A stretch of DNA of 34,334 nucleotides from Rhizaria sp. SCN 62-66 (GCA_001724265.1 MEDY01000323.1:1-34334); one strand, 5' to 3'; counted from the first letter of the stretch, positions 1 to 30,556 are shown. The notes: generated from the sequence alone by a model not told the origin. Program-made: numbers and translations.

Positions 1-117
1 TGCTTCGAAGGAGTCTTAGAGTCCTGCTGCTTCGAAGGAGTCTTAGAGTCCTGCTGCTTCGAAGGAGTCTTAGAGTCCTGCTGCTTCGAGGGAGTCTTAG
101 AGTCCTGCTGCTTCGAG
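1..117 (-). repeat. 27-bp coding tandem repeat (>=4 copies) encoding PSKQQDSKT
   Basis: Unit tgcttcga(a/g)ggagtcttagagtcctgc at 1-27, 28-54, 55-81, 82-108, partial copy from 109. No spacers; length is a multiple of 3. Confidence 0.95.
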
Positions 118-569
118 GGCACCTTGGAGCTACCACTGTCGTCGTCGTCATCAGAAGGCTTGCCGTCTTCGTCCGCATCCTCGTTCGTGGTGATAGCGTT
201 GATCGTCGTGGTGCCGGCGTCATCTGTGTTAGTGATGACCACCGTCGTGGGGATCGTGTTGGCGGGAGCAGCGCCAGCCTTGCCATCGTAGAGGAAGTTG
301 GAGCCGGAGATGTACAATGGCGCCTTGTAAGTCCCAGCCTCGTTGTAGTACCACGCGTAGGTGCTGTGGTCGATCTCCGCGTTGATCAGGGCGTCGATGT
401 AAACGGACGCCTTGGTCGTGGTGCCAGTCTCAGCGAGAGCGGACGCATGGTCAGGGACCTTGGAGGTAAGGTCCTGCTCGCTCTGGTCAACGACGTCAGC
501 CGAGGCCTGGGCGAAGGCCGCCATGCCAAGCATGGAAGCCATAACAACGAGAGAGCGGAGCAAACGCAT
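1..569 (-). CDS. Secreted protein of unknown function with acidic stretch and tandem 9-aa repeats (3' end runs off the window)
   Basis: Not in the ORF track. Manual translation from ATG 569: MRLLRSLVVMASMLGMAAFAQASADVVDQSEQDL...YAWYYNEAGTYKAPLYISGSNFLYDG...DADEDGKPSDDDDDSGSSKVPSKQQDSKTPSKQQDSKT..., open to the window edge. Signal-peptide-like N-terminus and the C/G-ending codon bias of neighbouring genes. Confidence 0.85.
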   Translation of the reverse strand, partial: MRLLRSLVVMASMLGMAAFAQASADVVDQSEQDLTSKVPDHASALAETGTTTKASVYIDALINAEIDHSTYAWYYNEAGTYKAPLYISGSNFLYDGKAGAAPANTIPTTVVITNTDDAGTTTINAITTNEDADEDGKPSDDDDDSGSSKVPSKQQDSKTPSKQQDSKTPSKQQDSKTPSKQQDSKTPSK

Positions 570-1333
570 TGTTAAACACTCTGGAATGAAACAAGGGGCG
601 TAGAGATGACACAACGCATGGGAAAAGTGAGGGAGAGGGAGGAGATCGGATGTTGTGGTGAGCGTGTTTCTAAACCGAGCCTCATACGCAACCCAAAGTG
701 GTATTTTGACTATATCAAAGGAATGTCATATTATTAAGCCATTGGACAACGGCTACAAAGAAAAACACCTAAAGTTTGACCATCCCAATGTGCCTTTTGA
801 CCGGCTCAAAGTGGGATCGACAACACTCCTTTGAGCTTCATTCATCCGGCTTGCTCGCTCGCCGATTTTTTCGGCCCCACTCCTCCACCTGTCAACTCAC
901 TTTAAGATGACAACTCGCGGCAATAGATTGGGAGAGTAAAAAATGCAAGGGTGGTGGGGACATGATACAAATTCATAATTGTATTGTTTTTTGATAGTCG
1001 CACAGACAGACATTGTAGTTCATGTTTCCGCGTCAAGGTACTAGCTCTCGGCGTTACAGTAACCAGGCTCATCATTGTCACGCAAAGCTAGCGAGCTGGG
1101 TTTTGTGAGTAGTTCTTGATACCAGCCACCCGCTTCACATGACATCATCTGCAACATGTGCAATATCTCACAAAGGTCAGGGGGGACGCCGCTCCGGCTG
1201 AGGCTTGCAGCTCAAAATAAAGAGCTCTTCATAAAAAGTCCCCCTCGTCCGTCCGCGTCGGCGTCGTCATCATCATTGTTTCATCATCATACTCGTCATC
1301 ACCACATCGTCTTCATCACAGAGCACCGGGCGC

Positions 1334-1984
1334 TTAGACATCAGCCTCCCAAAGCTCGACCTTGATAGCGACGCTGAAGTACTCAGCGATCTTCTCGGGG
1401 GTCATCGCCTCCTCAATCGTCTCGCCGTTGGGGCGGAGGAGCGAGATGTGGCCTGTGGCCGTGGCCCAGGCGCCCGTGGTGTCCCAGCGGATGACGCCGG
1501 CCTTACCCTCGAAGGGCGTCATCGAGACGCCGCGCTTCTGGCCCTTGGGGGGAACGGCGACGATCGAGGGGGCGCCGAAGTTCTTGTTAAGGTACTGAGG
1601 CACGAAGGTCTTGACACGGTAGATGTGGTTGTTGCCCTTGGCACACGTGATAGACTCGTTGTTGGCCAACTTGGGGATCTTAAGACCCGGGTGGCCCTTC
1701 TCTGCGGCGCAGTTGAAGCACGCCGAGATGCGGATGGCGCAAGTGTTCGTGATCCAGGCCGCGTCGATCTTGCCACCAAGAAGCTTCTTGGGGTTCGACT
1801 TAGGGTAGCAGTCGTCGAGCAGACGGTACTTGGGCATCGACGCGTGCGCGCCACTGACCTTCGTTTGGATCAGAGACGTCGGAACAGCCTCGAGGCGCGA
1901 CTTCGGGAGCGAAGCCGCCGCTGCCAAGCTGATGGAAACCAGCAGGGCCACGAAGAGGAGCACTGCACGGGCACTTCCCTTCAT
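1334..1984 (-). CDS. Secreted Tae4-like (type VI amidase effector family 4, NlpC/P60-type) peptidoglycan amidase; candidate domesticated amidase effector, 216 aa
   Basis: Signal peptide MKGSARAVLLFVALLVSISLAAA. Tae4-like motifs in order: NTCAIRIS (catalytic Cys), HIYRVK..YLNKNFGAP, GKAGVI, W.TATGHISL (catalytic His), terminal VELWE. Intronless CDS, TAA stop. Confidence 0.8.
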   Translation of the reverse strand: MKGSARAVLLFVALLVSISLAAAASLPKSRLEAVPTSLIQTKVSGAHASMPKYRLLDDCYPKSNPKKLLGGKIDAAWITNTCAIRISACFNCAAEKGHPGLKIPKLANNESITCAKGNNHIYRVKTFVPQYLNKNFGAPSIVAVPPKGQKRGVSMTPFEGKAGVIRWDTTGAWATATGHISLLRPNGETIEEAMTPEKIAEYFSVAIKVELWEADV

Positions 1985-2494
1985 ATCACCTACACAACAG
2001 GAAAACAAAGCCGCGGAATAAATACATAAATGATTAGAACATTATAGCCTACAAACTACGCATACAATTAACCGCAAGGGAAAGAGACGGCCTTTAGCGA
2101 CCCCATGGGAACTTCAAAGAAGGACGACTTGTGCCATCATTTCTCTCGAGCGAGCTCGAAAAGCGGTCGGTCGAAAAAGTCTCCTTTATGTCATTCATTT
2201 TTTCAGTCCAGAGCCAAGTCTCAACTTTATTTTCATTCTGGCTCGATATGAAGGCTGAATCAAAGAAGTTTTAGTGGTGCATATTGAGGGTGTTCAGTCT
2301 ATGTTTTTGTTGATATGAACGAGAGTTGATGTGCCATGTATTTTTTTCTCTTTAAATGTGCTCCTTGTTGCGCACACAGAGCAATATCTTCTTCGTATCT
2401 GTCACCCTCCCATCTGCATCTCACTGCCAGCACGCCTGTTTCTCCTTGTTTGGTCGCTTTCACGGGTGTACTTTGCGCTACAGGCAGCGCTACC

Positions 2495-4947
2495 ATGATG
2501 TCCTCCATGCGCACTCGTCTCGCCAAGACCGCGACTACGCTGTCTGGCGCGATCGCGTCGTCCGCCTCCGTCTCGGTCGCTTCGCGCCGTAACCTGGGCA
2601 ACTCGGCCCCCTCTTCGCTCCGCAAGGAGTGGGAGAAGATCGCCGCCAAGGACCTCCGGCAGACCCCTGTCGAGTCGCTCATCTCCAAGACCGCTGAGGG
2701 CATCGACATGAAGCCCATCTACTTTGCCGAGGACGTCCCCGCGTCTGCCGCGCAGGAGCTGCCGGGCCGCTTCCCCTACACCCGCGGCCCCAAGGCCACC
2801 ATGTACACCGTGCGCCCCTGGACTGTGCGTCAGTACGCCGGCTTCTCCACCGCCGAGGCCTCTAACGCCTTCTACAAGCGCAACCTTAAGGCCGGCCAGC
2901 AGGGTCTCTCCGTCGCCTTCGACCTCGCCACGCACCGCGGCTACGACTCCGACAACGCCCGCGTCACTGGTGACGTTGGCATGGCCGGTGTCGCCATCGA
3001 CACGATCGAGTGCATGAAGGTGCTCTTCAACGAGATCCCGCTCGACAAGGTCTCCGTCTCGATGACCATGAACGGCGCCGTCATCCCTATCATGGCCATG
3101 TTCGTCGCCGCCGCGCGCGAGTCTGGCGTCGCCTCCCAGGCCCTCACCGGCACCATCCAGAACGACATTCTTAAGGAGTTCATGGTGCGCAACACCTTCA
3201 TCTACCCGCCCGAGGCGTCGATGCGCGTCATCGGCGACATTATGGCCTACACCTCGACCGAGATGCCCAAGTTCAACTCGATCTCCATCTCCGGCTACCA
3301 CCTCCAGGAGGCCGGCGCCGACGCCGCTCTTGAGCTCGCCTTCACCCTCGCCGACGTACGTTCCAGTTGAAGTTTAAAAAAACATCATGATCTTTTTGTT
3401 TTGTGTATCTCATTGCACTCGTAATGTTTGTGGTTTGTTCGAAGCTCCACGTGATCTCACCTGTACTTAATCGTTGTGCTGTTTTTGTTTCCCCTTAATT
3501 CTAGGGTATCGAGTACGGCCGCACCGGTGTCCGCGCTGGTCTGGACATCGACGCCATTGCGCCCCGGTTCTCCTTCTTCTTCGGCATCGGCATGAACTTC
3601 TACATGGAGGTCGCCAAGCTCCGCGCCGCGCGCAAGCTCTGGGCCAAGCTGATGAAGCAGCACTTCAACCCCAAGAACGAGCAGTCGCTCATGCTCCGTA
3701 CCCACTGCCAGACCTCCGGCTGGTCCCTCACCGAGCAGGACCCCTACAACAACGTCGTGCGCACCACGGTCGAGGCGATGGCGGCCACTCTCGGCGGCAC
3801 GCAGTCGCTGCATACCAACGCTTTTGACGAGGCCGTTGGCCTGCCCACCGACTTCAGCGCCCGCGTCGCGCGCAACACGCAGCTGCTGCTGCAGACCGAG
3901 GCCGGCATCCCCAAGGTCGTCGACCCCTTCGGCGGCAGCTACATGATGGAGGCGCTCACAGAGGCGCTGATCGAGAAGGCCGAGAAGATCATCAACGAGG
4001 TCGAGTCCCTGGGCGGTATGGCTAAGGCCGTCACCTCCGGCATGCCTAAGATGCGCATCGAGGAGGCCGCGGCGCGCAAGCAGGCCCGCATCGACTCCGG
4101 CGAGGACATCATCGTCGGCGTCAACAAGTTCCAGGTTGAGGGCGAGAAGCCCATCGACGTGCTCGTCATCGACAACGCCGCCGTGCGCCAGTCGCAGGTC
4201 GCGCGCCTTGCCGCAGTTAAGGCCTCCCGCGACAACGTCAAGGTCAAGGCGCTGCTCGCCAAGATTACCGAGGCCGCGGCCGACGCGTCCAAGGGCAACC
4301 TGCTCGCCATTGCCGTCGAAGCCGCGCTCGCGCGCGCGACGCTGGGCGAGATCTCCGACGCCATGGAGTCGGTTTTCACCCGTTACGCGCCCGACGCCAA
4401 GCTCGCCGCCGGCGCGTACAAGAGCGAGATCGGCTCCATTTCGAACCCGGAGGACGCGAAGCGCGCCATGGAGGAGGTGCTCGAGCTGCAGAAGCGCTGT
4501 GCCAAGTTCGAGGAGAAGCGCGGCCGTCGCCCGCGTCTGCTGTCGGCCAAGATGGGCCAGGACGGCCACGACCGCGGCGTCAAGGTCGTCTCCACCGGCT
4601 TCGCCGACCTCGGCTTCGACGTCGACATCGGCCCCCTCTTCTCCACGCCCGCCGAGGTCGTGCGCCAGGCGCTCGACGCCGACGTGCACGTCATTGGCGT
4701 GTCGACGCTCGCCGCCGGCCACAAGGCGCTCGTCCCCGAGCTCATGAAGGAGCTCAAGGCCAACAACGCGTCCGACGTCCTTGTCGTCGTCGGCGGCGTC
4801 ATCCCGCCCCAGGACTACGAGTTCCTGTACGAGCAGGGCGTGAGCGCCGTCTTCGGCCCCGGCACGCGCATCCCCGACGCTGTCCGCAAGGTCCTCGACG
4901 CGCTCGACGCGCAGACCGAGAACTCCGGCGTCTCTGCCTCCATGTGA
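2495..4947 (+). CDS. MMUT: Mitochondrial methylmalonyl-CoA mutase (adenosylcobalamin-dependent), 767 aa, 2 exons
   Basis: Exons 2495-3355 and 3505-4947; intron 3356-3504 (GTACGT...TAG) restores FTLAD|GIEY. Motifs [39 protein letters not shown]12-binding QDGHDRG. Ser/Arg-rich presequence. Confidence 0.97.
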
Positions 4948-5270
4948 GTCAGCGGTCTCGTCTGATCGGCAGATAACGGGTTGGCTAGGTGGGGTGTTGC
5001 TGACTGGGAGCTCAAATCTCGCAGAAAGCTGCTGTTGTTGAGATGGTTTAATAATTGATGCTTTTTGAGGACGTTACGGTTTTGTTGTTGTGGCAGATGT
5101 GGTTGTTGATGTCTCTTGTGTGTTGAATCGCGGTAGCGTTATGTAATTAAGTTGGGCTGGTGGAAAGAATAAGAATGACTAAACTTTTTATTAATCAATA
5201 AACAACTGTCACAATATTTAAAACAAAAAAAAAAACGCTATAATTCTAGGTAACTTTCGTTCCGACCGAA

Positions 5271-8200
5271 TCACTTTAACATTATCAGCTTCGTAACTGC
5301 ATCACAAATCTCCCTCGCGACAGCCGCAACCACCGTGCCATAACCAACCGTCCTTCGCGGCTTGCCAGCTACCCGTCTTGTTTGCACTGACGCTGCGGTG
5401 ACTGTTGATAACTCCCAGTGTACAGCAGAGTCGCCAGTGCAAACTACCTCAAGTGACAGCCGGCTTGCTAAGCCTGTGTAGTCATAGTCATGTTGTCCAG
5501 CATTAGCGTCTGCGTCAGAAACCGACTCGTCTCTGTTTTGATCAGCAGCAAGAGCACATGCCCACGCAGCAGCCCTCAGTCCCATTGTCGCAAGAGCCAG
5601 AGGCAAGCATTGGACGGCAGCGACTGCAGCAACGGCAGCAGCGGGCGGCAGCGTGAAGAGCACGAGTGAGAACAGCAACGCGCCTGCTAAGCACTGCTCG
5701 CGGTCGAACGCGTTCGAGAACGTGACTTGTGCGCGCAGCGTACTTGTGCGAGCACCGGTGAAGAGACGCGCGAGCACGTGCAGCATTTGCAGGAGCGCCA
5801 ATAAAACGACACAGTACGCATTGGCAAGTGCTGCTGCAACAAAAAGGGGCGGGAGCAAGATGAGGTCGTGTGCGAGTGCCAGGGCAAATGAGGGCGCGGC
5901 AGGGATAGCAAGCATGGCGACCAAGATTATAACAGCGATAAGGAGCTGCGACGTGACCGTGAGCAAAGCAGGGGTGACCGAGAGCAGTGAAATACCTGCA
6001 GTGACTGGTGTCGCTGCGGCAGCTGACAACAGTGCTGTAATAACGCTGTTTGTGAAAGAAACACACGTGATCGCCGTTGCGTTTACCAGTGTGGCTGCAA
6101 TGGCCGCGAGTTGGGCTGCGAATGAGAGCAAAAATCCCAGTACTGTCGCAGCCAGCGAGTGTAGCAAAGCACAGAGAGGCACAATGATACGCACAAGCAG
6201 CACAGCAAAGCGAGAGCTCGTAGAGCGAGAGTTTGACCTCGCACTCGAGCTCGTATTTGTGCTTGCATTGAGCGGCGAAAATGGCTGAGATTGCAGCTCC
6301 AGGTGCGTCTGCGCTGAAGTGAGGGCAGGAAGCCACGGTGAGATACGACAGACAAACCACTGCAACGGAGGCGGAGGCGCGTGCGACTGCTGCTCTGTCG
6401 CAAGCACTGACGGCAACAGAGGCGGAAACAGCGGCAGCAATGCGGACACTGCAGCTTCGACAACACCTGCACCCGAGACAGAGCCACTAACAGAGCTAGT
6501 TGCGCTTTTGCCAGCCGTCGTCGAGGCAGCAGTGGCCCGAGCGATTGCGACAGCAATGGGCGACGACACTGCAGTTGGCGCAGAGTCCGCAGCAACAGTG
6601 TGCTCCGCAGCCGAGTCAGACTTGGCACCAGCGAGCAGGCCAGGGGAAGGACATGCGGCTTCGAGCGCGGCAGGCGTGCCCCAGAGCGCTGCTGCAATGC
6701 CGCCACGGCCGTGAGTCAGCCGCACCGTCGTTGCGGCAAGAGCGAAGGGCGAGCCGTGGCTGGCAGCGGTGATCAGATGCCATAATAAGGCGGCAGGAGA
6801 AGCTGTTACCGCTGGAAGCAAACTTTGTACCGTGAGCAAAAGTGTAATGAGAAGAAACACAGCCAGAAACAGGCGACTAGTTAACTTGGCACTCGCGGTT
6901 CCAGAAAACGTGGATTTGACTAGCTTGTTGTTCATAATCCTGCCACGCTCATTACTGTTATTGTTAATGCATGCAAAACGGGAGACAAGACTATAACGAG
7001 TGAAAGACCTCACAACATTGCCAAAAAGGCCAAGATTATGTGTCATACATTGCATTTCGACACAGATTGGCAGCAAAACAAAGTGCCACGCAAAGCGACC
7101 ACCGATCATGGCCACAAACACAACAGCACTAGAAACAAGTGCAATAACGAAAGCGAGAAGCAATAGCGAAAGATTCAGTGCAAAAAACTGTGGCAGCGCG
7201 ACGAAAACTTGCTGGGCATCGTCTTTAAGCAAAGATAGCGTCGCTGAGTTTGTACTCATCACTGTGTCGGCAACAGCAATTGTGATAGAACTGACAGTAC
7301 AGCTGTTTAGAGCAGTGCTGGCGCAGGACTTAATTGTCTCACTCACAAACAGGGTCGCAGCAACTTGGAGCAGCAGCACAGCACAAATAGCGGCAACAGT
7401 GCTGCTCCACGTTTCACGCCTCTGATGGCTTGACTTCGGCAGCACAGTCACTCCTGGTGTGGCTGTACGCAGCAATAAAACACGTGCGGCCTCAGACTGA
7501 GCTAAGGCAGCAGCAGTTGCCACAGCGGCATCACTCTTAGGAAACACGTTGAAACCCTTCTCAGTATCTTTGCTCACGCCGGAGCTGTTCGTAGCTGCGA
7601 GTCCTAGCGCGCAGAGCAAAGAGTGGGCTCGCGCGCGAGACAACAGAGGCAGCAGCGGGGGCAACGGCACAGCAGCCGCCGCAAGTGACCAAGGGCAGTA
7701 CCAGACCACAGCCGCGTAATGCTGTTTAGTCGGCACAGAGCTACAAACACCTGGAGCTCGGAGGGACAAGCGCCAGCACGCAGTAACGCTGTCAGAAACG
7801 CTATGCTTGTTATTGCTGGTATTTGCAATTTTGAACAACGGGAACGAAAACAAGACTTCAGCAATAGCAATCGGTTCACTGTTATTTCCGCTTAAAATAG
7901 TGGTGTTTTCGTTATTATAAGGGTTGTCGGTGTCGCTCGCAGTGCTAAGTGACAGCTCAGCGTGGCCAACAACACGTAACGCCTGCGACGAGTGTGATGT
8001 GGCGACTTCATGTTCGTTGTTGGGGGTGACAGCAGCAGCAACAACCCATCGATCCTTACCACAGCTAGCCGCATTGTTCAACGGAGTGTTTACATGGCCA
8101 ACCGCGCTGTCAGCGCTAGATCTCGAGCTCGAGCTCAAGCTCGGGTTGAAGCTTGACTGCGAAGATGTTGTTGATTGCGACTGCGACAAGAGTAACTCGG

Positions 8201-14860: not shown

Positions 14861-15898
14861 ATGAGCGGGCGTGGTGTTAAGCGTGCCACAAAGCCGCCCG
14901 CGCAGCCTAGTACGTCGAAAGATATCATCATTTGTCGCACGCTCCTCCTTCGCACCACTAGTCTCTCCCATGGACTCTCGCACCTTCTAACACATCTTTC
15001 AACTTGTATTTTATCATTCGAACCTGCTCTTGTTTCTTTAGAAGCGGCGAAGGGTGCCAGTGCGCGCTCCGCTGCCGCTGCAGCGTCCGCCGCCTCCGCG
15101 AGCGCTGACGGCGATAACGACAACGACGACGACGATGATGACGGCGACGCCAAGGGTGGCAGCAAGTCCCGCGGTGAGAAATCCCTCGGTAAGATCACCC
15201 AAAAAGTTGTTGAGCTTCTTAAGTCTTCCCCCGACGGCGTTGTTGATCTGAACCAGGCCTCGATCGAGCTCGACGTGGCCAAGCGCCGCATGTACGACAT
15301 CACGGCCGTGCTGGAGGGCATCGGAGTTATCGACAAGCGCGGCGTCAACTCGATCCAGTGGCGTGGCTCCGACTCGGACGCTCAGTCGCGCACGCAAGAG
15401 CTGCAGGCCGAGTACGCCGGTTACGAGCGCGAGGAGCGCGAGCTCGACGAGCAGCTCGCGCGCATGCAGCGCACCGTCGAAGGGCTGCTAGCGCCGCAGA
15501 ATCCTGACAACAGGCACGTGTTCATCAGCCCCGCGGACCTGATGGACGTGCGCGCTTACCGCGACTCCGGTCTGCTCGCGCTCAAGGCGCCCGCCGGCGC
15601 GCTGCTCAACATGATGGAGCCCACCGTGGAGGCGCTGAACGCCGCCGCAGCCGCTAGGGCGGCGCTGGCTAACGGCAATGGCAGCGCGAGTGCGGGCGCT
15701 GGCGCGACTGAGGCTGGCGTTAAGACCGAGTCGCAGCATCACTTGTATCATGAAGAGTTCATGCCGTATAAGATTTACGTCAAGTCTGAGCACGGACAGG
15801 TCGAAGTAAGTATGCAACAACTCCAGAGTTCGGGCAGCGGTGCGGTGAAGGCTCAGGAACGCGAGGTTGAGGTGAAGCTTGAGGGTACTGAGAATTGA
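14861..15898 (+). CDS. E2F: E2F-family transcription factor, ~301 aa, 2 exons
   Basis: Winged-helix domain RGEKSLGKITQKVVELL..DGVVDLN...KRRMYDITAVLEGIGVIDK...IQW, then coiled coil and marked-box-like YKIYVKSEHGQVEV. In-frame intron 14910-15041 (GTACGT...TAG, 132 nt). Confidence 0.92.
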   Translation: MSGRGVKRATKPPAQPSTSKDIIICRTLLLRTTSLSHGLSHLLTHLSTCILSFEPALVSLEAAKGASARSAAAAASAASASADGDNDNDDDDDDGDAKGGSKSRGEKSLGKITQKVVELLKSSPDGVVDLNQASIELDVAKRRMYDITAVLEGIGVIDKRGVNSIQWRGSDSDAQSRTQELQAEYAGYEREERELDEQLARMQRTVEGLLAPQNPDNRHVFISPADLMDVRAYRDSGLLALKAPAGALLNMMEPTVEALNAAAAARAALANGNGSASAGAGATEAGVKTESQHHLYHEEFMPYKIYVKSEHGQVEVSMQQLQSSGSGAVKAQEREVEVKLEGTEN

Positions 15899-18800
15899 AT
15901 GACTTCCCGTTGTGTCGTTACTGTATGTACGGGCTAATTTCAAGGAGATTGTTCTTCATTTCTCCTGTCATAACAGTCTCATGGCCGGCCATGTCGATGG
16001 TCAAAGACGGAACTCAAAGCACTTCCTTTTGAGTCAAAGCTGTCGTGAAAAATGTTACAGTAGTAGGACAAGACATAGATGCACTAATACACATCTATAT
16101 TGATAGACACTCTTTTGAATGCTGGTCAAACAGAAGTGTTCATCTCTCCTCTATTTGTTTGTTCCTGCTTAGATCGATTTGGGACTTATCGTATCCTCGA
16201 ATATACCAGCTCTTGTGTCAAAAATATTATCAACACATTGCGATCCTTCTTATTAAATGGCAAAAACGAATAACTTGTTGGATTCAGATCAATTGAATGA
16301 TTTATGAAACTTGCTGTTAAACTGTTGTGTGTAAACTATGCTGTGAGTGTGATTGTGCGAGATAGTATGACAACACTGGGCTCTAATAGGCGCAGATGGA
16401 TGCGTAGATACTCATACAAATTCTGAAAATAACACTGGCAACAACGAAACTGAACGTTCTTGAAAGGTAACAGTCCTTTTGTTGGCACACCGAAACTCAC
16501 ACTGCTGTGGAACTCGGCTATGGAACTGAAGTTTCAAGTTATAATTCTGTGGAAATAATAGTTACTGGAAAAACATCTGTAAATTTCATAAATATTTTGC
16601 TATCCAAACTAGGTGCAGGAATCCAAGTCTGGGTGTGTCTACGATTTGGCATGATTCTTCGATCTGATATTAGACTTAAAACATAGACGAACGATAATGA
16701 GTACCCATTCTTCACTTCTTACATGCTTATATTGAGTTATGCAAAAATTTTACGAACAATATTACCATATTTATCAAATAATTCTATATATCTTTAGAAT
16801 AAAAACTATTATATTAACATAATCTACGGTTAACATGTGCTATGACTGCATTAAAAGCAATGTCACAATCAGTAAGCAGTTACAAGTGGGCAGGTAGATC
16901 CTAGACGGGACCGTGTTGACATCGTGCTCATGTGTATCATCAAGCTTTATCTGCTTAAATAAGTTTGAAATAAGTTTCCACAAGATACTCAAATGTTTTT
17001 ATGTTTCTACATTTCTCTTTTGCCGCTGCCGCTTCACTTTCGTGATGCCTGTGCTTGCAATGCCTGCGGTCTGTTGCCGCTACCCTTGCGCCTGTTACTG
17101 TTGTTCTTATCCAACACTATAACAATCTAGAAAACGTATTTTTTGTTGCTTTTACATATTTTAAGTATGTACCAGCATTTTTTTTACAGTAACTTTTCCA
17201 TTGAACAAGATTACACAGTGTCTGCACGAATAATAGGAATGAGGGTTTCATAACGTGGTTGAGCGACCTGTCTGGCGTAAATGTGAAGAAATCATATGAC
17301 ACCGTCCGTTTATCAGTATAAAACTCACGGTGACAATTCATCTGTTAGCAATCTATAGGATATCATTGAATCAAAACGAGGTGCTGCATTTTAAGTGAGA
17401 TGTTAGTAAAGGTTGCCATGAGATGATTCCGACAGAAAATTAGAGCAGTTTGACCGAAATCAACAAATGTTGAAGCTTGGGTTGAATCACGTTTGAATTT
17501 GTAAATTAAAAGCAAAATCACATTTATAAGTTATTTTTACAAGGGCTTTTTAGTTATTAAAAAGAATAACTATTGTTTAGCTGAGATGTATCGAGTTAAG
17601 TTTTGATGACTGGGTCGGGAGCTCGAAGGGCGGAGGAGGATGACCTGCCCACCATTTCATCGCGTCATCATATTTACTTGTGACTGCAATATTAATGCAT
17701 TAAATTTCTGTAATTAAAATTATTAGAAGTGTTTATATTCAGTACTAGAGATTTATTTGTGTTTGTGCCGTATTTATTGCACATATAAGCATCCTTTCAA
17801 AACTGCTTCTCGGGCAGTCAAAACGCTGTCCCTCCTTCATTTCACCAAATCAAAGGTTTCATCATCAGACAATGTATGCATTCTTTTATATTATAGTTTA
17901 CCGCTTAGTTGCGTAATTTTTCAAGTGTTTTCGCGAGTATTATCTAGAGGAGACTTTGTTTGACTCCGCTATATCAACTGGTCTGCGATGCTATGCTGCC
18001 GACGACATGATTTGCGACGTCCGCGCTCCAACCACGCTCGCAACTTAGTCCTTGGCTGATTTGTTGGGAAAACTGCGTGGCAGCATTGCCCTTACGCTCT
18101 GTTGTGTGGAAAACGTGATTAAATGTTGCGTTACTGAGCAGAACACCGCGCCACAGCGTTCCGCTGAATGTGACTCATTTTCTAATAATCGCACCACTCG
18201 CATCTTTGAGTTTTGCGTTACGCTTGCTTTTAAGGTCAAATTGTGTCTTTTCCTGTTGCGAAAACGCATCGCTAGGCGTTGATACAACCTTATGGCTTTA
18301 TTGGCGGAGCGGTTTAATCATAATATTGTTGTTTTATGTCATTTCTGGTGTGGTGGCGCGAGCGCAGCTTCGTGCAATAATCTGTTCAAGTTCTTCATAA
18401 CGCACCGTTGACAGCACCACTAATGTCAGCTGCGCGCCAAAGGCCCTGCTGACCCCGGATTTATCTTACATGACCTGGGTCCGCCCGCGCGCGTTAGCAG
18501 AGGACCTCAGCTTCCTCCCTCTTCGCTCTCACCCATGTTCGAAGATGTTCATGTCGTTTGCCGATTGAACAACGAGCGTAACCACCTGGATCAACCCAGA
18601 GGAGACGAGTTGGCAAACTTAGATTTCGTGATATCTCTGCCAGTGTCAAAATGACAATTAATTAACTAACTTTTTTTGATGTCACTTATAGTTTTAATTT
18701 CGGATATTTATTTTTTTGTTTGAACAACAAGTATTATAGCTCGATATGTCTCACGGGAGGCGACATTTTTCTTGTGATGAAGATATACGCACCAAGACAA

Positions 18801-19216
18801 ACAAAAACTTGACTTTGAATAAAGAAAGTATTTTTATCGCATGACAAATAATATGTGAACGCTAAGATAAAACAAAACTACAATCAAAAATCTCAAGATA
18901 TGTTTACAAAGCCAATAAAGCGACTCTCTGAATTCAGCCTCTCCACAGGTTGTAGCAGGTGGGTGTGCGGAAAGCTGGGCGAACCTCAGGCCCGTCGGGA
19001 CCGTGAGCCGGCCCCAATAGACACCGCTGAGTACGCGCTTGCGGAGGAGAGAAAAATTTGAATTTTCGAATTCTGCCTGAGTTAAAAACTTACGGCTTTT
19101 CCAACTTAAACTCGTGCGACACGACTTTATTTCACGAACAAATGACTTGATCTCATCTTTTTATTTGTTTTCATATTTCCTGCACTTCTGCGCTGCGTAT
19201 ATTTAGTAGTAAAACA

Positions 19217-26719: not shown

Positions 26720-29700
26720 ATGTTTGCGCACACCGCCGGGGCTCAGGCACCCCCTGCTGCGGCACTGCTGACTGCAGAGCATCCTCTTCAGCGTCTTGTG
26801 ACACTCTCCGAAGACACTCTTCGCAAGCATGCTTTCGTCGGTGGTGAGGCTTCGGAGAATGCTCCGAGCGCTCTGTCTCTCCTCGCTCTTGTCTTTACCA
26901 CCAGTGACGCCAGCGCAGAGACTGACAGCGATGGTGACAGCGACGACGATGCCGACTCGGAAGCCGACGCTGAGGCGGAGGCTGACTTCGCAACAGAGTC
27001 TGCGCTCCTCACCCTCACCGCCACCGCCGCAGCTGTTACTGCACTCACTAACGCTAAGCCCAACCACAACAGCAACAGCACTTCGTCTAGCAGCTCCAGC
27101 TCCAACTCGAACTCTGGCAGCTCAAGCTCTGGCTCTAGTACCAGCAGCGGCAACAGCAACAACAAAGCGAGCCTCCCGCCCGTAAGGCTCACCGCTGTGG
27201 AGCAACTGCTTTGCGGCGCCGCCGCCGGCGCCGTGGGCAAGACGGTCGTTGCGCCGTTCGACCGCGTGAAGCTGCTCTACATGGTCAACCCGGCGCGCAC
27301 GTTTACGTTTACGGCGGCGACCAAGACGTTCCGCACGATCTTCGTCAACACGGGCGTGTCGGGGCTGTTCAAGGGCAACGGCAGCGCCATGTGGCGCGTC
27401 CTGCCCTACTCGGCCCTCACCTTCACCACCTTCGACCGCTACCATCGCTATCTCCGCGCGAACCTGCCCGACGAGGCCAACCACCCGGTTGTGGCGCGCT
27501 TTCTCGCCGGCGCGGCCGCGGGCACGACCGCGACGGTGCTGACGTACCCGCTCGACGTGCTGCGCGCGCGCGCCGCGGCGCACTGGGGCGCCAACGCGCT
27601 CTACTCGAGCGCCGGCAAGGGCATCGCGGACATCGTGCAGAAGGAGGGCGTGCGCGCGCTCTTCGCGGGCATCATGCCGACGCTCTACGGCATCGTGCCC
27701 TACGGCGGTATCTCCTTCGCCGTGTTCGAGACGCTCAAGGCGGCCTACGTCACGGCCGTGCTCCCTGCCGGCAGCAAGGACAGCGACGTGCCCGCCGCCG
27801 TGCGCTTCATTGCGGGCGGGCTGGCGGGCGTGGCGGCGACGACGGTGGTGCAGCCGCTGCAGATCGTGCGGCGCCGCATGCAAGTCAGCACAGTCGTCGA
27901 CGGCATGCCGCAGTACCGCTCCACGCTCCACGCACTCAAAGTCATCTACATGACCGAGGGCGTGTACCGCGGGCTCTTCAAGGGGCTCATGCTGACGTGG
28001 CTCAAGGCGCCCGTGTCGATGGCCGTGTCCTTCACCGTCAACGACTGGCTGCGGCACAAGCTACTCAAGTACCACACCAACGCGCGCGACGAGTGGCAGG
28101 CCGCGACGGCGGAGCGCAAGCGCGCGCGCGAGGCCGAGGAGGCGCGCGCCGCCCGCGCCGCGAGCTACCGCAAGGCCGTCATCCGCGAGCTCGTCGCCAC
28201 TGGTGCCGTGTCGGTCACGGCCAAGACTGACGCCGGCAGCAGCGCCGCGGCGATCGACGACACCACGGGCGTGGCCGTCGTCGGTGGCAGCGCCAGTGCC
28301 AGCGACAGCGTCGGTAGTGTGGGTGCGGACGACGCTGCTGCGAACGCTGCGACCGGTGCTGAGAGCGCGGTGAGAAATCTCAGTGGCAGCCGTGACCAGA
28401 CCGCGCCCGCGCCCGCGACTGCGGCCGGCGGCGCGAGCGCCATTGGCGGCGCCATTGGCGGCGCGACCAACGTCGTGACAGTGCGGCGCCGCCGGTCCGG
28501 CCCGGCCGCGACGCTCGAGGACGACGGCGTGGCTTGGGTGTCGGCGTCCATCGCGCTCTCCGAGGGCGAGAGCGGCGCCGCCGGCAGCGGTGACGGCGCG
28601 GATATCGACCACGCGAACTTAGCCACGATTGGCGAGTTCGGCGGCGGCCCGCATAGCCAGTGTGTTCATAGCCACCAGGGCGGCGAGTGCGGTGTGTGCC
28701 GCTACTGCCGCAGCCTCGCTGCCGCCAGCGAGGCCGCCACGACCACCGCCGCCGCGCGCGCCGCCGCTCTGGCCCTCAGTGCTAACACCGCCGCCAGCGC
28801 GGGCGCAGCTGCCTCTCAGAACAGCACCAGCACCAGCAGCAGCGCTGTCTCCGACAAAGACGCTGCGAAGGCGACCGCCGAGACCGTGGCCGCCGCCGAG
28901 GCCGCCGCGGAGGCCGCCGCCGCGACGGCCGAGATCGGCGGCTGGAACGACGCTCTGGTCGACGCGCTGCTCGAGACGCACAGCAGCACCGGCAGCATCG
29001 GCGCCTTCGCGCTCAGCGCGCCCTTCCTGGCCGCCGTGTGCGACTGCGTCGAGGCCAAGGTCTCCGCCGCGGCCGCCGCAGCCGCCGTGGCCGCCATCGC
29101 CGCGGCCGACAGCAACGTCAACAGCGGCCAGATGACTGTGACGGGCCCCCCGCCGGCGCCGGCACCCGTGAGCCCCGAGGTTGAGGCCGACGCGGTCACG
29201 TCGTGCACGGCGGAGTGCGTGAGCGCGTATCAGCACGAGCGCGACGCCAACGCCAACGCCGCCGCGTGCTCCGCAGCGGCGGCAACGACAGCGGCGGCGG
29301 CCGCGACGGCAACGGCAGGCGTTGGCGCCAAGACGGCTGCTGGTGCTACCGCTGCTGCTGCCGACAAGGCTGCTTTGGGCGCGGCGGCGTCGAGCGCGTC
29401 GACAACGATGCCCGGCGACGCGAGCGGCAAGTTCAGTCTCCTCACTGGTCTGAGAACAAGCACGAGTGACAGCGGCAGCACGAGCAGCTCCAGTTCACGC
29501 GCCGGCGCGGGCGGCAAACAGTGTAAGACCGTCACCCCGGTGCCCCACATCGAGCTGCGGTCCGACAACGTGCGTCTGAGCTCCGAGGCGCTGCTGCTCG
29601 CCGGTGGCCTCGCCGGCGCCTGTGCTAAGACCGTGATCGCGCCTGCCGACAACATCAAGATTCTCTACCAAGTCGACCCCAACAAGCGCTTTACCTACAA

Positions 29701-30556
29701 GTCCGCGCTCCAGACGGGCAAGTCTATCGTCGCGAGCGCCGGCGTGCGTGGGCTCTGGCGCGGCCACGGCGCCACGCTGCTGCGCGTCGTGCCCTACGCC
29801 GCCGTGACCTTTGCGACGTTCGACCGGTTCCACGAGGCGGTGAACAAGGCGCTGTACTCGGACCCCTCGGAGCTGAGTGACGGCGCCGTCGTCACGCTGC
29901 CCGACGGCACGGTGCAGGTCAACTGGACCGCGCCGGGCCCGCACGACGTTGTGGCGCGCTTCCTGGCGGGCGCGATGGCCGGCGCGACGGCGACCGCGCT
30001 GACGTACCCGCTGGACCTCATGCGCGCGCGGCAGGCGGCGTCGATCACGAGCGCGCCGCTCTACTCGTCCTACTGGTCCGGCTTCCGCTCCATCGTGCAG
30101 GGCGAGGGCGTGACGGCGTTGTGGGCCGGGCTGAAGCCCACGCTGCTGGGCATCGTGCCCTACGCCGGGCTGTCCTTCTCGATCTTCCACTCGATCAAGC
30201 GCGAGATCCGCGAGCGCGGCAACTACAAGACCGACTCGCACATCCCCACGTGGGCGCGCCTCCTGGCCGGCGGCGCGGCCGGCCTGCTCGCGCAGTCGCT
30301 CACATACCCGCTGGACATCATCCGCCGCAGGAACCAGGTCGGCACGCTGCAGGGCGTCGGCACGGGACGCGCCCTGCGCACCATCTACGCCACCGAGGGA
30401 CTCAAGAACGGGCTCTTCCGGGGGCTGTCGATGAACTGGATGAAGGGTCCCGTTGCGTCTGCCGTCAGTTTCACCGTCAATGACAGGCTTAAGACGTGGA
30501 TGGCGCGGCGCCAGATCAAGTTGGAGCACGGAGAGAAGCCGTCTACGCTGCATTAA
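26720..30556 (+). CDS. Tandem double mitochondrial carrier (two 3-repeat SLC25 units, CoA-carrier SLC25A42/Leu5-like) joined by a long Ala-rich linker, 1278 aa
   Basis: Unit 1 signatures APFDRVK, YPLDVLRAR, QPLQIVRRR; unit 2 APADNIK, YPLDLMRAR, YPLDIIRRR. GNGSAMWRVLPY/GHGATLLRVVPY, GIVPYxG and GLSMNWMKGP resemble the CoA-carrier subfamily. One uninterrupted ORF. Confidence 0.88.
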   Translation: MFAHTAGAQAPPAAALLTAEHPLQRLVTLSEDTLRKHAFVGGEASENAPSALSLLALVFTTSDASAETDSDGDSDDDADSEADAEAEADFATESALLTLTATAAAVTALTNAKPNHNSNSTSSSSSSSNSNSGSSSSGSSTSSGNSNNKASLPPVRLTAVEQLLCGAAAGAVGKTVVAPFDRVKLLYMVNPARTFTFTAATKTFRTIFVNTGVSGLFKGNGSAMWRVLPYSALTFTTFDRYHRYLRANLPDEANHPVVARFLAGAAAGTTATVLTYPLDVLRARAAAHWGANALYSSAGKGIADIVQKEGVRALFAGIMPTLYGIVPYGGISFAVFETLKAAYVTAVLPAGSKDSDVPAAVRFIAGGLAGVAATTVVQPLQIVRRRMQVSTVVDGMPQYRSTLHALKVIYMTEGVYRGLFKGLMLTWLKAPVSMAVSFTVNDWLRHKLLKYHTNARDEWQAATAERKRAREAEEARAARAASYRKAVIRELVATGAVSVTAKTDAGSSAAAIDDTTGVAVVGGSASASDSVGSVGADDAAANAATGAESAVRNLSGSRDQTAPAPATAAGGASAIGGAIGGATNVVTVRRRRSGPAATLEDDGVAWVSASIALSEGESGAAGSGDGADIDHANLATIGEFGGGPHSQCVHSHQGGECGVCRYCRSLAAASEAATTTAAARAAALALSANTAASAGAAASQNSTSTSSSAVSDKDAAKATAETVAAAEAAAEAAAATAEIGGWNDALVDALLETHSSTGSIGAFALSAPFLAAVCDCVEAKVSAAAAAAAVAAIAAADSNVNSGQMTVTGPPPAPAPVSPEVEADAVTSCTAECVSAYQHERDANANAAACSAAAATTAAAAATATAGVGAKTAAGATAAAADKAALGAAASSASTTMPGDASGKFSLLTGLRTSTSDSGSTSSSSSRAGAGGKQCKTVTPVPHIELRSDNVRLSSEALLLAGGLAGACAKTVIAPADNIKILYQVDPNKRFTYKSALQTGKSIVASAGVRGLWRGHGATLLRVVPYAAVTFATFDRFHEAVNKALYSDPSELSDGAVVTLPDGTVQVNWTAPGPHDVVARFLAGAMAGATATALTYPLDLMRARQAASITSAPLYSSYWSGFRSIVQGEGVTALWAGLKPTLLGIVPYAGLSFSIFHSIKREIRERGNYKTDSHIPTWARLLAGGAAGLLAQSLTYPLDIIRRRNQVGTLQGVGTGRALRTIYATEGLKNGLFRGLSMNWMKGPVASAVSFTVNDRLKTWMARRQIKLEHGEKPSTLH

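Follow-up and report, generated by a model that had tools for sequence, protein, structure and literature searches.

A Tae4-family gene for a probable peptidoglycan amidase with a predicted secretion signal, transcribed from eukaryotic nuclear DNA of bioreactor and wastewater metagenomes

The window, by which we mean the whole 34,334-nucleotide stretch of DNA analyzed here, carries an intact and uninterrupted ORF whose codons run from 1984 to 1337 on translation and which encodes a Tae4-family, Dae4-like amidase beside a divergent gene for methylmalonyl-CoA mutase (MMUT, Table 1). A preliminary description of this DNA had pointed to the Cys motif NTCAIRIS and the His motif ATGHISL of the Tae4 family, and both are present, containing Cys82 and His179 respectively. 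The N-terminus of the protein consists of MKGSAR, an 18-residue hydrophobic run and AAA/S, which we judged by eye to be a signal peptide, as had been proposed; the protein would thus carry a signal-peptide-like N-terminus and is probably secreted. Residues 1-30 had pLDDT values of 52-63 in the AlphaFold2 model described below. In the Tae4 3' UTR, directly past the stop codon, an imperfect 14-nt repeat (TCATCATCACACTCG, 2.7 copies) occupies positions 1281-1320.

Table 1. Features at the Tae4 locus, in positions counted from the first nucleotide of the window.
Feature	Position	Strand	Details
Tae4-family (Dae4-like) amidase CDS	1334..1984	minus	216 aa plus stop TAA at 1334-1336; single exon
Catalytic Cys82 codon (NTCAIR)	1739..1741	minus	aligns with the Tae4 catalytic Cys motif (PMC3695027)
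Catalytic His179 codon (ATGH)	1448..1450	minus	aligns with the GH of 4hfk and 4j30
Predicted signal peptide, residues 1-24	1913..1984	minus	read by eye
Loop after the catalytic His (about residues 181-200)	1385..1444	minus	from the alignment; Glu191 inside
3' UTR of Tae4	1036..1333	minus	about 300 nt, to the end of the X4 RNA contig
Pyrimidine-rich tract and AG acceptor (AG 1991/1990)	1990..2008	minus	5 nt before the ATG
5' stretch of the primary transcript, probably unspliced (outron or 5' intron)	1992..2055	minus	inferred from X7
MMUT (methylmalonyl-CoA mutase), divergent neighbor	2495..4947	plus	two exons; Pfam and spliced RNA contig

The neighbors of the Tae4 gene are eukaryotic. Pfam families found in the window were MM_CoA_mutase, E2F_TDP, Vta1, six Mito_carr repeats and the class I synthetase family tRNA-synt_1b, and the MMUT intron (3356-3504, GT..AG) was absent from an RNA contig, which bears out the intron-containing eukaryotic neighbors of the preliminary description. 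Named MMUT relatives were 61-67% identical and came from fungi, chlorarachniophytes and animals (nearest 65-67%); other relatives were closer, at 76-88%. A protist host is plausible, since the locus is compact, the genes are GC-rich and the introns are short, and a run search found DNA of the window in bioreactor and wastewater metagenomes. Codon usage of the Tae4 gene was host-like, as described: its GC3 was 0.84, against 0.71-0.94 in the five Pfam-identified neighbor genes, a value that would also fit a GC-rich bacterium, and its RSCU correlation with the pooled neighbors was 0.85, against 0.84-0.97 for the five genes, which are themselves part of the pool. Non-coding DNA flanking the gene had 42-48% GC. 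None of the 7 flanking ORFs scanned for an immunity gene had a Pfam match, in keeping with the earlier statement that no such gene lies beside Tae4. The setting is therefore not that of a type VI secretion (T6SS) effector and its immunity partner, given the eukaryotic neighbors, the flanks with no Tai4 match and the predicted N-terminal signal peptide. With six family members as queries, tblastn found no Tae4 paralog and no Cys-rich module of the kind described below elsewhere in the window.

Three other parts of the window stood out. Directly downstream of Tae4 on the same strand, the minus-strand ORF at 3-614 encodes a second protein with a predicted signal peptide and a high content of Thr, Asp and Ser, which matches no Pfam family and extends past the window edge; a 27-nt tandem repeat at 1-116 (4.3 copies, 98% matches) encodes SKQQDSKTP-type repeats toward its C-terminus. 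A single plus-strand ORF of 1,278 residues at 26720-30553 has six Mito_carr repeats, where three are usual, after a long N-terminal extension; a tandem-fused mitochondrial carrier and a read-through of two genes are both possible. In the AT-rich region 16001-19000, with 35-45% GC where genes have 55-73%, no ORF reaches 120 aa; the region is spacer, repeat or degraded mobile DNA.

We aligned contigs of four other sequencing runs (X3, X4, X5 and X7) to positions 1-6000 of the window. X4, a run labeled as a doubtful RNA library, gave a 2,071-nt contig of MMUT with 3356-3504 removed and left the intergenic bins 601-1000, 2001-2400 and 5201-6000 uncovered, so we conclude that it holds RNA. The same run gave a 982-nt contig over 1036-1991 that contains the full Tae4 ORF at a depth of 33, against about 10 for MMUT, and that showed no joint and no hidden exon within 1036-1991. 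This contig departs from the genome at AG 1991/1990 and continues with six non-genomic letters and then the library adapter. The same is seen in the MMUT RNA contig, whose match to the genome begins at the AG of that gene (2482) after five unaligned letters. The Tae4 gene is thus transcribed and processed as a host mRNA. A pyrimidine-rich tract and AG lie 5-19 nt upstream of the ATG in 5/5 Pfam-identified genes (Tae4, MMUT, E2F, carrier and aaRS); an AG this near an ATG is common by chance, so the RNA contigs are the evidence that counts, and they uphold, for Tae4 and MMUT, the claim that the amidase gene has the same pre-ATG acceptor as host genes. Apart from Tae4 and MMUT, the tracts of these five genes lie upstream of the ATGs at 14861, 26720 and 33099; the MMUT AG is at 2482-2483.

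For the non-genomic letters of the Tae4 message we considered a nearby cis-spliced 5' exon, which is unlikely: the six letters are absent on the right strand from 1992-5218, so a trans-spliced leader is the more likely source. The ends of the Tae4 and MMUT RNAs look like spliced-leader trans-splicing. An Rfam scan of the window gave nothing at gathering score, neither a spliced-leader RNA nor another RNA gene. In the polyA-RNA run X7, a contig over 1572-2055 reads through the acceptor and the next contig starts at 2115. These contigs fit divergent primary transcripts around a 60-bp promoter gap, with DNA carry-over as another possible source; across the acceptor X7 had only unspliced contigs, which could be such carry-over.

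Contigs of three other runs, from other studies, covered the Tae4 gene and its AT-rich flanks, and two of them extended to the MMUT side. A 2,098-nt contig of X3, from another study, matched 318-2415 with 0 differences. In X5, a 1,324-nt contig over 1422-2745 joins most of the Tae4 ORF to MMUT exon 1 with 2 differences, so it represents another strain. The exact window protein (P0001) and the exact MMUT exon-2 product were each found on 7 contigs, the longest of 53,676 bases. The Tae4 gene is encoded in eukaryotic nuclear DNA. The X5 strain had 0 differences in the covered ORF positions, against 8 in 1,229 flanking non-coding bases (615-1333 and 1985-2494), a pattern with a chance of about 0.03 by rough estimate, and the sole variant within the Tae4 ORF, at position 1945 in X7, is synonymous (CTG>TTG). 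The ORF appears to be under constraint.

The family assignment rests on both profile and structure. Pfam Tae4 (PF14113) matched residues 79-188 above its gathering threshold (44.7 bits against a cut-off of 27, E 1.7e-11), covering profile positions 2-104 of 125 and ending at 104, while an NCBIfam scan of the window protein gave no match. Below E 0.01, phmmer against PDB sequences returned only Tae4 chains (4hfk, E 1.7e-4; 4j30, 4hff and 4jur, E 1.3e-3). We built an AlphaFold2 model of the window protein from a 120-sequence alignment; mean pLDDT was 88.5, and values exceeded 94 across the Tae4 domain. Foldseek against the PDB gave 11 matches at E<=1e-3, all of them Tae4 crystal structures, with TM scores by target of 0.63-0.82; among them were 4hfk_A (E 2.4e-10, TMt 0.79), 4j30_A (TMt 0.82), 4bi3, 4bi4 and 6ijf, and the next match after these 11 had an E of 0.42. 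Both checks that the preliminary description had proposed, against the Pfam model and against Tae4 crystal structures, thus returned Tae4. The protein has the family, the fold and the catalytic dyad of Tae4, and Cys82 and His179 are invariant in the alignment (34/34 rows in all, 21/21 rows of the clade defined below and 13/13 bacterial rows).

We searched 1.84 billion representatives exhaustively with HMMER; 175 matches had E<=1e-3, of which 42 reached E<=1e-10 and 3 reached E<=1e-30. The best match, P0004 (E 1.6e-55), was 57-60% identical in the domain. P0004 and most of the next matches consist of a signal peptide, one to three Cys-rich modules of about 35 residues, a low-complexity linker and the Tae4 domain. 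The module follows the pattern C..GG.C.D....C...F.TGLCPG...I.CC and had no Pfam family and no usable Atlas match; the window protein does not carry the modules of its relatives. Variants P0030, P0163 and P0166 have a C-terminal Cys-rich domain, and P0059 has a Kringle fragment scoring 32.8 bits, below the cut-off of 34.3. A second group with the same kind of Cys-rich modules (P0031, P0046, P0056, P0069, P0116 and P0128) carries a short-loop, bacterial-type Tae4 and branches among bacterial rows, which points to either module shuffling or a second transfer.

The genomic setting of some relatives could be read from their contigs. L005 (identical to P0011) has as neighbors on its 230-kb contig a myosin of 1,913 residues with Myosin_head, MyTH4 and WW domains and a DDX60-like helicase, and L001-L004 are mRNA-like contigs of 1.1-1.35 kb with AT-rich ends and complete ORFs for a signal peptide, two Cys-rich modules and Tae4. 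Three of these contigs, L001, L002 and L004, share TGGATAAGTCAT near their 5' ends (within 1-60). In its first seven letters TGGATAAGTCAT agrees with the beginning of TGGATAATCCGGCTTTTCTG, the conserved spliced leader of Paulinella (PMC6053224), and it could be a related rhizarian leader or simply reflect orthologous 5' UTRs. Named relatives of the window protein were bacterial, mostly metagenome-assembled Myxococcota, 25-37% identical, and many had a lipobox or PG_binding_1. Possible viral carriers (giant virus or phage) gave 25 pattern matches in viral contigs, 0 of them confirmed. By features, the nearest Atlas cluster (0.93) was a 57-member eukaryotic Tae4 cluster in which Mollusca was the commonest phylum, which we take as a lead only.

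Phylogenetic trees, all unrooted, placed the window protein consistently. FastTree on 238 rows joined P0001 and P0004 at 100 and gave a 27-row group at 95, and a quick IQ-TREE run on 96 rows gave a 22-row clade holding P0001 with an SH-aLRT of 90. For a careful IQ-TREE run we removed 29 of these 96 rows beforehand, namely those on long branches, a duplicate, and further rows that were distant or redundant; in the resulting 67-row tree (bootstrap/SH-aLRT), P0001 and P0004 joined at 100/99, P0005 was added at 97/86, and a 21-row clade was held at 100/98. The clade comprises the window protein, L005, 15 rows that have at least six Cys beyond the Tae4 domain, and 4 rows that are fragments or others; it contains 0/19 named bacterial rows; 2/21 clade rows lie on contigs shown to be eukaryotic, and the others are termed eukaryote-type by domain architecture. 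Between GH and YF, clade members have a loop of 20-26 residues with a nine-residue insertion and no CxxxC, against 13 residues in most bacterial rows. Cys59 and Cys92, a covarying pair that probably forms a disulfide, are jointly present in 14/21 clade rows and jointly absent in 7/21, occur in 0/13 bacterial rows and are present in P0001. The window protein thus belongs to the long-loop clade both by its insertion and by its placement at 100/98.

The same loop marks where the active site has been rebuilt. In Salmonella Tae4, Cys44 and His126 are reported as the essential dyad and Asp137, flanked by Cys135 and Cys139, as a third required residue (PMC3695027). In the window protein the loop after the His is 22 residues long, against 13 in bacterial relatives, and has no CxxxC pair; neither an Asp alignable with the canonical Asp137 nor the Cys135-Cys139 pair was found, because the loop has been rebuilt. 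A loop Glu occupies one column in 18/21 clade rows and sits one residue later in P0001 and P0004, making Glu191 a candidate third catalytic residue. P0001 and P0004 also share D175T, D181S, W183L, G185P and F167W, at positions near the catalytic His that are otherwise conserved in 18-19/21 clade rows, so altered specificity or weaker activity is possible. The substrate-groove motifs were mostly retained in the alignment (NTCAIR, RV, GxxG, ATGH and YF..LW).

Eukaryotic linkage, host-like RNA processing, the predicted secretion signal and the absence of an immunity partner together fit the picture of a domesticated amidase effector (dae), which is how the preliminary description had read the gene. 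We consider it likely that the gene product is a secreted peptidoglycan amidase with the papain-like NlpC/P60 fold, derived from bacterial Tae4 toxins, and that the gene is now an ordinary nuclear gene of a wastewater or bioreactor microbial eukaryote. The primary transcript would start in the bidirectional promoter gap of about 60 bp common to Tae4 and MMUT, and another 5' end, most likely a trans-spliced leader, would take the place of its own at the AG that lies 5 nt before the ATG. The signal peptide would direct the protein to the secretory pathway. In the mature enzyme of about 190 residues, Cys82 would be the nucleophile and His179 the base, with Glu191 possibly orienting the His, and the bond cut would be the gamma-D-glutamyl-diamino-acid bond in the stem peptides of peptidoglycan. 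The enzyme may attack bacteria inside food vacuoles or extracellularly, in prey digestion or antibacterial defense; an immunity protein would not be needed, since the producer has no peptidoglycan. As a precedent, Nematostella Dae4 is reported to be secreted, to cleave Gram-negative and Gram-positive peptidoglycan, and to kill B. subtilis, an effect lost on mutation of the catalytic Cys of the enzyme (PMC8713801).

The rebuilt active site also raises the idea that the enzyme has moved away from bulk peptidoglycan digestion, either through a changed bond or substrate or toward control of a peptidoglycan-bearing endosymbiont or organelle rather than prey. We regard this as unlikely. The remodeling near the catalytic His that P0001 and P0004 share, the loss of the Asp/Cys-Cys loop throughout the clade and the missing Cys-rich modules of the window copy would suit such a shift, and the specificity of tick Dae2 is reported to have widened after transfer (10.1101/2020.04.10.036376). 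However, the dyad and most substrate-groove motifs have been kept, the ORF is apparently under constraint, and the window holds no sign of an endosymbiont. A secreted peptidoglycan amidase used on bacteria is the reading we retain.

The preliminary description had further suggested an undescribed independent transfer, and here the data led elsewhere. Of the phylogeny it had proposed, with bacterial Tae4 and known Dae4, our trees covered the bacterial part, and the named bacterial rows fall outside the clade of P0001; the independent transfer is not supported, since P0001 nests within the 21-row eukaryote-type clade with its derived loop insertion. A lineage-specific transfer directly from a bacterium, apart from other eukaryotic tae4 homologs, would agree with the lack of a named eukaryotic sequence among the matches and with the modest identity to the nearest relative, P0004; tae genes are also reported to have entered eukaryotes several times (PMC8713801), and Giardia muris is described as having its own recent, lateral acquisition of Tae4 (10.1101/870949). 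We nevertheless think this improbable, as the clade that holds P0001 at 100/98 includes no named bacterial row, P0001 has both its nine-residue insertion and its Cys59/Cys92 pair, and the named bacterial relatives are only distantly similar. The nesting and the common derived insertion indicate instead that the transfer predates the window organism. For the wider family, an AU test did not reject a union of the long-loop and short-loop proteins with Cys-rich modules (28 rows, p 0.35), which the free tree separates, so one transfer or several are both possible, and since the trees are unrooted no donor can be named. An assembly chimera, or a bacterial contaminant joined to eukaryotic DNA, might be suspected from the metagenomic source of the window and the intronless Tae4 ORF but is very unlikely on the evidence of linkage, splicing, codon usage and constraint, given three runs of other studies that cover the gene and its flanks (two reaching the side of intron-bearing MMUT, one with strain-level differences), Tae4 RNA spliced at a eukaryotic-type acceptor, and host-like codon usage and gene/spacer GC pattern.

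Eukaryotic tae homologs, the 'dae' genes, were reportedly described by Chou et al. in 2015. Eukaryotic tae4 homologs (dae4) are already in print and the window gene adds another, leaving the general picture from published dae genes unchanged; the features that mark the clade, and the Cys-rich module, are possibly undescribed. Taking all parts jointly, we tentatively entertain a broader reading that is possible but doubtful as a whole: the window gene would be a stripped-down member of an undescribed Dae4 subfamily, marked by a rebuilt loop with a conserved Glu in place of the Asp/Cys-Cys arrangement, by the Cys59-Cys92 pair and by the Cys-rich module of about 35 residues as a candidate cell-wall-binding domain, and dispersed across unrelated eukaryotes that range from protists to animals. 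On the branch of P0001 and P0004 the modules would have been lost and the residues around the catalytic His remodeled, with a changed substrate range as the outcome, in a host lineage with no earlier report of spliced-leader trans-splicing.

What the locus offers is a documented case, resting on genomic linkage, splicing and transcription, of an interbacterial weapon kept as a working-looking, predicted-secreted gene in a free-living microbial eukaryote of engineered ecosystems. Genes of this kind make up a sizeable eukaryote-type clade, as yet unnamed, that is marked by a structural signature of its own and by accessory modules. In the microbiology of wastewater, the gene is a candidate tool with which grazers may lyse bacterial prey, and for enzyme discovery, its product is a compact, disulfide-poor candidate peptidoglycan amidase with a rebuilt active-site loop.

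Compared with bacterial Tae4 (4hfk, 4hff, 4j30, 4jur, 4bi4 and 6ijf), the window protein belongs to the same PF14113 family, has the same fold (TMt 0.63-0.82) and shares the Cys and His of the NTC and GH motifs, and hydrolysis of the gamma-D-glutamyl-mDAP bond is the chemistry expected of both. The two differ in that sequence identity to the bacterial structures is only 19-23%, in that the window protein has a predicted eukaryotic signal peptide and neither T6SS delivery nor a Tai4 immunity gene, and in that a longer, Cys-free loop replaces the CxDxC loop that carries the third catalytic residue of the bacterial enzymes. The nearest named bacterial relatives are secreted or lipoprotein Tae4-like proteins of Myxococcota and others (L072-L092; also a protein of Paraliomyxa that has PG_binding_1). 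The WITNTC motif is common to them and the window protein, and many are exported, but they are 25-37% identical, have a short 13-residue loop, often with CxxxC, and carry lipoboxes or PG_binding_1 where the eukaryote-type proteins have Cys-rich modules.

Among eukaryotes, the closest functional precedent is Dae4 of Nematostella vectensis (nvDae4), which, like the window gene, is tae4-derived, resides in a eukaryotic genome, is transcribed, and encodes a secretion signal together with the conserved Cys of the active site; we liken the two by description, and the host is an animal in one case and an uncultured unicellular-type eukaryote in the other. The Tae4 of Giardia muris and the NlpC/P60 hydrolases of Trichomonas vaginalis, also likened by description, are described as separate acquisitions in parasites and represent the same concept, that of a protist with a bacterial papain-like peptidoglycan hydrolase directed against bacteria.
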